The position numbers and the translations under genes are program-made. A stretch of DNA of 64,000 nucleotides, taken from positions 928,001-992,000 of the forward strand of contig CM000436.1 of assembly GCA_000165345.1 (NCBI GenBank), given 5' to 3'. The notes beneath the pieces were generated by a model. It was not told the DNA's origin. It saw only the letters and a list, made by a program, of their open reading frames with translations, and made no database searches. Every line of letters starts with the position of its first letter. Within the stretch, counting starts at the first letter, position 1. Shown here in pieces: positions 58,733 through 61,358 of the stretch.

Positions 58733-59923
58733 TTATTGTATTTCAATATTAGGCTTCCACCATATTACATTAATACAAGCTAAAAGTAATTAGCATTCAC
58801 ATATATTTAAGGTGGTTAATGAACATACCTGAAGCAAAAAAGGCCTTTTTAGGGTTGAATGCAATGCATTTCGGTTGTCCAACATGACCAGTGAGATTAA
58901 CTATATGTTTTGCAGTAGTAGTTGACCAAATAGAGATAGTGGAATCCTGTAAACCATGGATTACGTACTGGGAATCACTTGAAAATACTGGCCTAGTTTC
59001 AGATTTTATTATATGGTCTAAATATAGAATAATAAATAACAGTAATATAATGAAATAGTTAAATGAGGCCATTATCCTCAATTAAATTAAGAACTTACTT
59101 GGAGATTTATTTACAGTTTTATATTCTTGGAATAGCTCTCCTCTGAATGAACTAATGGTGAAGATTTTTCCTAAATTGGTTTTAACTAATATAAGTCTGC
59201 CATCAGGACTGAATGTAATATGATCTATGTAATTTTTCTTTCCAATATGACTTGAAAGGTTAAAGGTATCAAAAGGAGAGTATGTTTTAGAATCATACAT
59301 AGTGATAATATGATCATCAGTTGCAACAGCAAAAGTTCGTCCTTCAGGGTCAAAAGCTGAGATTGGAGTTTTATTTTTTGTGGATTGAACTGCCAATGGG
59401 GTCTCAAGCTTAAAATTATATATAGATACTTTTGAATCATTTGTTGAAACAATGAATAAATCTTTGTTGGGATGCACAGAAATCCCATTATATGGCACGA
59501 CACTAAAAAGAGTTGAATAAAATGAATTAGAAATAATGATTTCCAAACATAAAGAAATATCTTAAATAAATTAACTTACCCAGATGAAAGTTTAGTAGCC
59601 CTAATATATCTATTTTCTTGAATATCCCATAGTCTGATAGTGGCATCACCATCTGTTTTGTTTGAAGCTACAAGGCATTGCTTGTTACTATGAGCGAATT
59701 TTATTGCATCCATACTATTCTTCCTAGAGTGGTGAATCCTGAAGATATCCCCAGAAGAAATGGTGTACACTCTTAATGTGTCGCTTTCACAAATGAGTAA
59801 TGAGTCGCCATCTTCACTCCAATCCATATTTGAAATAGGCGTGATCGCATCTTTAAATACACGGCATGCTTTAAATTTGGTAATCAAATCATCATTCAAA
59901 ACAGTTCTAGATTGTTCCAACAT
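58733..59923 (-). CDS. WDR82: WD40 protein WDR82/Swd2 (COMPASS/APT component), 4 exons: join(59923..59580, 59502..59099, 59017..58829, 58779..58733)
   Basis: The model fuses three ORF-track fragments (59576..59935, 59082..59546, 58797..59081) and adds a 15-codon terminal exon. Donors are GG|GTAAGT (59579), A|GTAAGT (59098) and G|GTATGT (58828). Acceptors are ctctttttAG (59504..59503), ttctatatttAG (59019..59018) and aattacttttAG (58781..58780). Introns are 77, 81 and 49 bp, with phases 2, 1, 1 consistent. ATG at 59923 (ORF start 59935 is TTG). The spliced C-terminus ..KKAFFASACINVIWWKPNIEIQ matches the WDR82 C-terminus (..FASACSNMAFWLPTIDD). Confidence 0.8.
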
Positions 59924-60172: not shown

Positions 60173-61031
60173 CTACTCGTCTGATATAGAATCATCTTCG
60201 CGATAATATAGTAGAGGGGCATGGTAAATATCTCTACGTATGATTTCTCCAATATCGATATCATCAGAGATATTTTCTGAAAAAAAGTCGAAAAATGATA
60301 AAACACTATTTTTGTATTCCTCTTCATTTTCTTCAGTATCAATAAATTTCTTTTCAATAATTGATCTTGGGGACTCTTTCTTCCAGTTAATTTTGGTTAC
60401 TTCGTTTACAATTTCTTGGTTATCTTTAAAGATAATATGCTTGACTAAAATATTTGGCTCCATAAATTCAGATACTGCCTCATCAAATATTAATTTAATT
60501 TTATAGGACCCTTCATTATCTAGATTATCTTCTAACTCTATATCTTTTAAATATTCAAGAATATCAAAATCCTCAGGATGCATGTTATCTTGGAAAACGG
60601 GATGTCTGGAAATAGTGTCAGCCCAAAATTTGGGTATTTTTTCAATTATAGCTTTTCTTTCATCAAAAATTGGTTTTTTCTTCTCATCAAATTGTCTCTG
60701 AATAATCATTTGCTCCTTAGCACATTCACTGTCTAGCTCCATTAATCTGGTATCAACTAATAATTTTCATTATTACTCTCAAATCAAAAGCTAGAAAACT
60801 TACCTTCTTCAAGCTTTGAAATTAATTCCTGTTTTTCATCTGAATTTGTCTTATCCCTAAGATATAATTCAAAAACAATAACAGAGTTAAAGTTACCGTA
60901 AATACTGTTCAAAACTAAAAAATTCAGCCACACTTATTACTGCATTGCAATAATAGTGTACTGAAGTAAATTTAAAATTACCCCATATTAGAAGTCTCAG
61001 CAGTTTCTAAATCTAACTTTTGCTTTTTCAT
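60173..61031 (-). CDS. nucleosome assembly protein NAP/SET family (SET/TAF-I-like), 3 exons: join(61031..60982, 60856..60804, 60756..60173), about 228 aa
   Basis: Exon 3 has the NAP core (KIPKFW..H..., strong similarity to SET: ..RQPFFQKRSELIAKIPNFW). It begins at acceptor aaaattattAG (60758..60757), 13 codons upstream of the ORF-track ATG. Exon 2 (53 nt, DKTNSDEKQELISKLEE) lies between acceptor tatcttAG (60858..60857) and donor GAAGAAG|GTAAGT (60803). Exon 1 is ATG(61031)...AATATGGG|GTAATT. Phases are 2 then 1, with no stops. Acidic tail. Confidence 0.7.
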
Positions 61032-61155
61032 CTTTATTATATCACAGCTTCTATAGATTAAAATATGTTGCTTTATAATTCAATCTTTAGAGTAATTATT
61101 ATAACCGCCTTCGTTTTTTTTAGTAACTTTCATATTATAGTCAAATTTTGATTAA

Positions 61156-61180
61156 TTGCCCGCCCGATTGTGCCGCCACT
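61156..61180. promoter_or_regulatory. TTGCCCGCCCGATTGTGCCGCCAC in the divergent promoter between SET/NAP (61031, minus) and gene A (61359, plus)
   Basis: Clustered GGCGGG-type sites. Confidence 0.45.
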
Positions 61181-61358
61181 TTATATGGTTTTACACGACA
61201 TGTACATGTCATTTTTGGCCTGAAGTGTGATTGAATAATAATTTTTACTAAAAACAAAAATAGATAGAAATTGAGATAATTTTTTCAAAAGTAATACATG
61301 GAATCTTGTGGGAGTATCACAGAAGAGTGTATTTGAGAATTATACGTCTAAAGAAAGA

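Follow-up and report, generated by a model that had tools for sequence, protein, structure and literature searches.

A small gene of the NAP family, of the SET/NapS type, is encoded on the minus strand of Cryptosporidium parvum chromosome 8. Removal of two GT-AG introns (125 and 47 nt) gives a 228-aa putative histone chaperone; we put the probability of this reading at roughly 94%. The gene lies in a window of 64 000 nt, the whole stretch of DNA that was analysed, taken from contig CM000436.1 of GenBank assembly GCA_000165345.1; the window is AT-rich (GC content of 33%), and all positions below are window positions. The three-exon model is already known: GenBank has carried it since the IOWA-ATCC re-annotation (QOY40163.1). 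The locus is an ordinary gene, correctly annotated in the current C. parvum reference, and its product falls in a chaperone family that is well characterised.

The ORF map of the window contains an ORF of 189 aa at 60173..60742 on the minus strand. In the spliced gene this ORF is the larger part of exon 3. The coding part of exon 1 (61031-60982, minus strand, 50 nt, ending in phase 2) encodes MKKQKLDLETAETSNM and two nucleotides of the codon for G17. Intron 1 (60981-60857, 125 nt, GTAATT..CTTAG) reads GTAATTTT...ATCTTAG. The internal exon 2 (60856-60804, 53 nt) supplies the last base of G17, the residues DKTNSDEKQELISKLEE and the first base of V35, and it codes for the N-terminal third of the long dimerisation helix. 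Intron 2 (60803-60757, 47 nt, phase 1, GTAAGT..ATTAG) reads GTAAGTTT...ATTATTAG. Exon 3 (60756-60173, 584 nt with the TAG stop at 60175-60173 counted in) codes for what remains of the helix and for the alpha/beta 'earmuff' NAP domain. The joined CDS of 687 nt is in frame; its 228-aa product begins MKKQKLDLETAETSNMGDKTNSDEKQELISKLEEVDTRLMELDSECAKEQ... and contains ...KLEEVDTRLMELDSECAKEQ....

Both introns have the properties expected of U2-type spliceosomal introns: they start with GT and end with AG, their removal restores the frame, they cannot be translated, and their position and phase are kept in orthologs. Retention of intron 1 leads immediately to a stop codon; retention of intron 2 introduces stops as well as a frameshift. 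The start codon (ATG 61031) has a good A-rich context. An in-frame stop is located 20 codons upstream, and no ATG intervenes, which rules out an in-frame 5′ extension of exon 1. An additional 3′ exon that would encode an acidic tail like those of SET and PfNapS was ruled out as well, because the position of the stop codon is the same in five species and the next gene downstream, encoding a WD40 protein, starts only ∼250 nt past the NAP stop.

The first-pass annotation, made from the letters of the window, had proposed a 50-nt first exon and an intron close to the lower size limit; each description holds in part. The coding part of exon 1 is indeed 50 nt long, but the real exon 1 also includes the 5′ UTR, and it is the internal exon 2, of 53 nt, that is truly small. 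Spliceosomal introns far shorter than 47 nt occur elsewhere. Within the species, with published genome-wide statistics as the yardstick, intron 2 belongs to the short tail of the distribution and yet is not at its limit: the 1364 CDS introns of C. parvum IOWA-ATCC have a mean length of 87 nt, with the shortest at 31 nt (PMC13125899 Table S1). Isaza et al. reported mean intron lengths of 84-99 nt in C. parvum (PMC4637869).

The spliced product was compared with existing records. It is 100% identical over 100% of the length (228 aa) to QOY40163.1, the product of CPATCC_004255 (C. parvum IOWA-ATCC, GCA_015245375.1, CP044415.1), which is annotated as "Nucleosome assembly protein (NAP)"; a second C. 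parvum GenBank accession, WRK34161.1, is identical to the 228-aa product too. Two C. parvum assemblies annotate the gene with a span of 859 nt, equal to 61031-60173+1, and in the locus with its flanks the window is identical to both of them. The first-pass annotation agrees exactly with QOY40163.1/CPATCC_004255 in the two small exons of coding sequence, the two introns and the coordinates of the four junctions; working from sequence alone, the earlier reader had arrived at a correction that was already in place through curation. According to its authors, the IOWA-ATCC annotation has RNA-seq support for 100% of its introns (PMC8744675), a general statement and not junction counts for this gene. 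Our literature search found no experimental study of a Cryptosporidium NAP protein.

The gene model was examined across five species, C. parvum, C. meleagridis, C. canis, C. felis and C. bovis, with a three-exon model built at the orthologous locus of each. The lengths of exon 1 (coding part), intron 1, exon 2 and intron 2 are 50, 125, 53 and 47 nt in C. parvum; 50, 128, 53 and 47 nt in C. meleagridis; 50, 121, 53 and 51 nt in C. canis; 50, 97, 50 and 64 nt in C. felis; and 53, 60, 53 and 79 nt in C. bovis. All introns are of the GT..AG type and follow phases 2 and 1 in all five species. The exon lengths shift only by multiples of 3, while the intron lengths vary (60-128 and 47-79 nt) and the intron sequences are hardly alignable past the closest species pair. 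Either intron, if retained, brings in a stop codon in each species. The start ATG is common to all five, with a conserved N-terminus MK[KR]Q[KR]L[DE]; the helix segment L[LI]..LE[EQ]VD..LME[LI]D is kept and the stop codon has the same position in all of them. The uniform model gives proteins of 228-233 aa. Read at the sequence level and independently of RNA data, this layout is what one would expect if the exons are genuinely coding and the introns between them genuine.

One element inside intron 1 has a conservation pattern of its own. The sequence TTC[A/G]GTA[C/T]A (TTCRGTAYA; +17..+25 from the donor, window positions 60965-60957) has the same donor offset in all five species, and it is kept even though the remainder of intron 1 is unconserved and the intron length ranges from 60 to 128 nt. 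The element cannot lengthen the reading frame because a stop codon directly follows the donor.

The simplest reading of the ORF map is a gene with no upstream coding exons, translated from the internal methionine M40 (ATG 60742), inside exon 3, as a single-exon ORF of 189 aa. This reading persists in several GenBank records of the 2004-era type: C. hominis XP_668045.1 (190 aa), C. ubiquitum (190 aa) and C. bovis (193 aa), as well as the original 2004 record of C. parvum Iowa II, XP_627288.1, a 197-aa model that starts just upstream of the internal methionine. The last of these is itself flagged 'partial', and the re-annotation that its authors describe as RNA-seq-supported includes both upstream exons. 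Exons 1 and 2 keep their position, length class and phase in five species, C. bovis among them, and the peptide from exon 2, which lines up with the SET helix, adds 13-16 bits. With the upstream exons the score against SET (2e50) rises from 66.7 bits (ORF only) to 82.9 bits (228 aa), a gain that, together with the five-species layout, exceeds chance expectation; against PfNapS the respective scores are 172.4 and 173.7 bits. A start at M40 cuts 22 residues off the helix. It had been claimed that the ORF-only protein lacks the dimerisation helix. The loss is partial: the first 22 residues (∼40%) of the helix at 18-74 are missing, but residues 40-74 (∼60%) are kept, and of the 23 helix positions equivalent to PfNapS contacts the ORF-only protein keeps 18 and loses 5. 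Given the conservation, the helix truncation and the lower SET score, we consider the 189-aa gene ruled out for practical purposes, its probability being close to nil.

A second deposited model uses the same exons 1 and 2 as the 228-aa gene but differs in intron 2, which is 71 nt long (60803-60733). The rival acceptor, CTAG, lies 24 nt downstream (..GAGCTAG|AC). The disputed 24-nt segment (60733..60756, minus strand, ..TGATACCAGATTAATGGAGCTAG) codes for VDTRLMEL in the 228-aa protein and is intronic in the alternative, whose product of 220 aa we could reproduce exactly. The alternative is in frame, its acceptor is a legitimate YAG, and it has been deposited three times: for C. parvum GCA_048859185.1, for Cryptosporidium sp. 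43IA8 (GCA_031892065.1) and for one C. hominis assembly (221 aa). The gene DNA of 43IA8 is identical to the window and that of GCA_048859185.1 differs by one base in exon 1; since the underlying DNA is identical or nearly so, 220 versus 228 aa is purely a difference in annotation.

Several observations speak against the longer intron. All five species keep the eight residues, as VD[THS][RK]LME[LI], and the variation within them falls on third positions and is mostly synonymous. The AG of the 71-nt intron is missing in C. canis and C. bovis, its conservation being limited to the C. parvum group and C. felis, and the TTAG of the 47-nt intron is the first AG past the likely branch region. Both SET and PfNapS align without gaps through the VDTRLMEL segment; the 220-aa model imposes a gap and a register shift, drops four positions equivalent to PfNapS dimer contacts and scores lower against SET 2e50 (69.1 versus 82.9 bits) and PfNapS (168.9 versus 173.7 bits). 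The curated IOWA-ATCC annotation has the 47-nt intron. As the main form, the 47-nt intron is thus clearly better supported by sequence comparison, and we regard the 71-nt intron in that role as very improbable. Somewhat less improbable, though still a long shot, is the idea that C. parvum and its nearest relatives might use both acceptors of intron 2, which would give helices differing by eight residues (∼two turns). If that were so, the gene would produce two isoforms, and the resulting chaperone dimers could differ in geometry.

The GenBank records of Cryptosporidium contain no fewer than seven conflicting models of this ortholog. They comprise proteins of 228-229 aa, of 220-221 aa, of 246 aa (intron 2 read through), of 222 aa (start inside intron 1), of 208 aa (exon 2 skipped), of 197 aa ('partial') and of 189-193 aa (ORF only). 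In the GenBank model of C. canis the start ATG is placed inside intron 1, and in that of C. felis exon 2 is skipped; the internal methionine is taken as the start in the models of C. bovis, C. ubiquitum and C. hominis TU502. In the model of Chipmunk genotype I a stop-free intron 2 of 51 nt is read through (246 aa).

The identification as a SET/NAP histone chaperone, proposed in the first-pass annotation, is borne out by domain, sequence and fold comparisons of the 228-aa protein. The Pfam NAP domain (PF00956) was found with 61.9 bits (E-value 7.2e-17), well past the gathering cut-off of 28.6. A homology search at E ≤ 1e-10 returned nine Cryptosporidium proteins; Plasmodium proteins were absent from it at this threshold, presumably due to its word-based candidate step, and more distant relatives were taken from a search against PDB. 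There the best match was PfNapS (5x7v, E-value 4.6e-50), followed by human SET (2.6e-22), Arabidopsis NRP1 (3.6e-17; NRP1/2 ∼1e-17) and Vps75 (∼1e-11), with the NRP/Vps75 matches in the range 1e-17 to 1e-12. Canonical NAP1 (∼5e-10, with a range of ∼1e-9 to 1e-10) and PfNapL (4e-3) were far weaker. The alignment to SET runs without a gap from query residue 15-17 to ∼126, a stretch that spans the exon 2 peptide and both splice junctions; exon 2 aligns to SET ADETSEKEQQEAIEHIDE, its peptide GDKTNSDEKQELISKLEEV standing opposite SET ADETSEKEQQEAIEHIDEV. The residue-for-residue match across the helix-earmuff junction that had been claimed is therefore found. Of the two alignments that had been proposed as a check, SET is gapless through the helix and NAP1 is weaker and limited to the earmuff.

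An AlphaFold2 model of the protein has a mean pLDDT of 81.4. Residues 1-17 are predicted to be disordered (pLDDT < 50), one long helix covers residues 18-74 (block pLDDT 83-92), and short helices and four beta strands follow. The predicted strands (104-112, 118-125, 137-145 and 148-154) with their flanking helices make up an earmuff, and the predicted long helix aligns with the backbone helices of SET and PfNapS, as in other members of the NAP family. When the model was submitted to Foldseek, PfNapS, SET and NRP1 came out best, and the top matches were all NAP/SET structures. The protein is nearer to SET, NapS and NRP than to NAP1 and NapL, and it has no insert between helix and earmuff. It does not have an extended acidic C-terminal tail: it ends in ...LLYYREDDSISDE (...YYREDDSISDE), where the core closes with YY and nine residues (REDDSISDE) follow, five of which are acidic. 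As such a tail lies outside the folded signature of the family, its absence is a difference that still allows membership. By sequence and predicted fold, the protein belongs to the short SET/NapS/NRP subgroup of the NAP family.

PfNapS (PDB 5X7V/3KYP) is the best match in both sequence and fold (∼44% identity in the structural alignment). Like PfNapS, the C. parvum protein has a dimerisation helix followed by a four-stranded beta subdomain with helices, and it is missing the accessory domain of NAP1; the two have in common the hydrophobic contact positions of the helix and the motif SFFDFF / SIFEWF. PfNapS is a nuclear protein of 269 aa that binds core histones and has acidic C-terminal stretches (PMC2873526). 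Unlike it, the C. parvum protein stops nine residues past YY, and its predicted helix is longer (57 residues versus 41 in the PfNapS crystal), nearer to the 54 residues of SET. The similarity to human SET (also TAF-Ibeta, I2PP2A or INHAT; PDB 2E50, 7MTO, 9I15) is seen in an alignment that continues without gaps through the backbone helix into the earmuff, with an E-value of ∼3e-22 and a Foldseek TM-score of ∼0.73-0.79 (target-normalised), at an identity of only ∼26%. SET reportedly carries a long polyacidic C-terminal tail, which is missing from the C. parvum protein, and the homology does not imply that the latter has the SET-specific activities (PP2A inhibition, INHAT).

Arabidopsis NRP1/NRP2 and fungal Vps75 are members of the same short NAP subgroup; they were matched over the full length in the sequence search and were recovered by Foldseek too, and their sequences are more distant. 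The partnership of Vps75 with Rtt109 is specific to fungi, and a partnership of this type does not follow for the C. parvum protein. Canonical NAP1 (yeast Nap1 2AYU, NAP1L1 and PfNapL) has the same PF00956 domain and core fold. However, matches to NAP1/PfNapL cover the earmuff only (query residues 56-213), and the C. parvum protein is without the accessory domain and ∼100-190 residues shorter.

Dimer contacts of PfNapS include F33, I36, Q37, I40 and L43 (PMC2873526), which correspond to L32, V35, D36, L39 and L42 of the C. parvum protein (query numbering is that of PfNapS minus 1). These five residues are located in exon 2 and the VDTRLMEL segment, and residue character is conserved at the positions equivalent to PfNapS dimer contacts. 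Judging from the structure model, residues 1-17, encoded by exon 1, would form a disordered tail. By homology with PfNapS and SET, the long helix of residues 18-74 (exon 2 and the start of exon 3) would pair antiparallel with that of a second copy, so that two chains would form a headphone-shaped dimer (PMC2873526). Residues ∼78-220 would fold into the alpha/beta earmuff, and the earmuffs together with the underside of the dimer may bind core histones. As in the same two relatives, the dimer would hold histones and pass them to DNA, acting as a nuclear chaperone in chromatin assembly and disassembly. Details of histone handling may differ, given that SET and PfNapS carry a long acidic C-terminal tail and this protein does not.

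The KKQK patch in exon 1 fits the minimal monopartite NLS pattern. A role as an N-terminal nuclear localization signal is speculation, and we keep it as such because the first 30 residues of PfNapS fail to send GFP to the nucleus: the aa1-30-GFP fusion is cytoplasmic (PMC2873526). It is a doubtful proposition as well that the first coding exon exists to supply the N-terminal patch K-[KR]-Q-[KR], conserved across the genus.

The region between the NAP start codon (61031) and a plus strand gene starting at ∼61359 is a divergent intergenic region of ∼325 bp. Its only block conserved in all five Cryptosporidium species, identified in the five-species alignment, is at 61159..61210 (minus strand), 128-179 nt upstream of the ATG. 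Read on the minus strand, the block contains a perfect 14-bp palindrome, GACATGTACATGTC (61210-61197), followed by CCATATAAAG, and two E2F-like boxes, GTGGCGGCA at 61179-61171 and GGGCGGG at 61165-61159; in other species the former box reads TGGCGCCA-like. The core of the palindrome occurs only once in the 64-kb window, with 0.08 occurrences expected by chance. E2F-like GGCGGG/[CG]GCGC[GC] and ACATGY are among the published over-represented upstream motifs of C. parvum (PMC3734150). The conservation suggests that this block may drive transcription as the promoter of the divergent region, and the NAP gene, which is transcribed from the minus strand, probably uses a short divergent promoter with the conserved E2F-like boxes. 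Control by E2F would suit a replication-linked histone chaperone, but the boxes hint at it only weakly because E2F motifs are so common in the C. parvum genome.

An upstream ORF of 17 codons is present at ∼61084-61134 (minus strand, ATGAAAGTTACT...GATTGA) and would be part of the 5′ UTR if transcription started near the conserved block. It is probably non-functional, since its ATG is not conserved in C. meleagridis.

Two neighbouring loci may be mentioned. The WD40-repeat gene (∼58733-59923, minus strand) has a 3′ end that differs between two C. parvum annotations, 327 aa with a span of 1191 nt in GCA_035232765.1 versus 322 aa with a span of 1127 nt in IOWA-ATCC; the disagreement points to an extra terminal intron in one of the models. 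Two introns of ∼80 nt, of the form GTAAGT..TAG, are visible in this gene (∼59579-59503 and ∼59095-59010). On the plus strand, an ORF of 223 aa (62451-63122) has a coiled-coil-like N-terminal part, then a strongly His/Ser-rich low-complexity tail (HRSHHSSHHSSHHNTHRSHTQSHSSTHRSHQSGSS...SSKSHSSSSHSKKDR).

The value of the result is in curation: one three-exon model fits five Cryptosporidium species, and its importance beyond annotation quality is small. For work on the expression, tagging or knockout of this gene we advise the use of the 228-aa model, with the full dimerisation helix.
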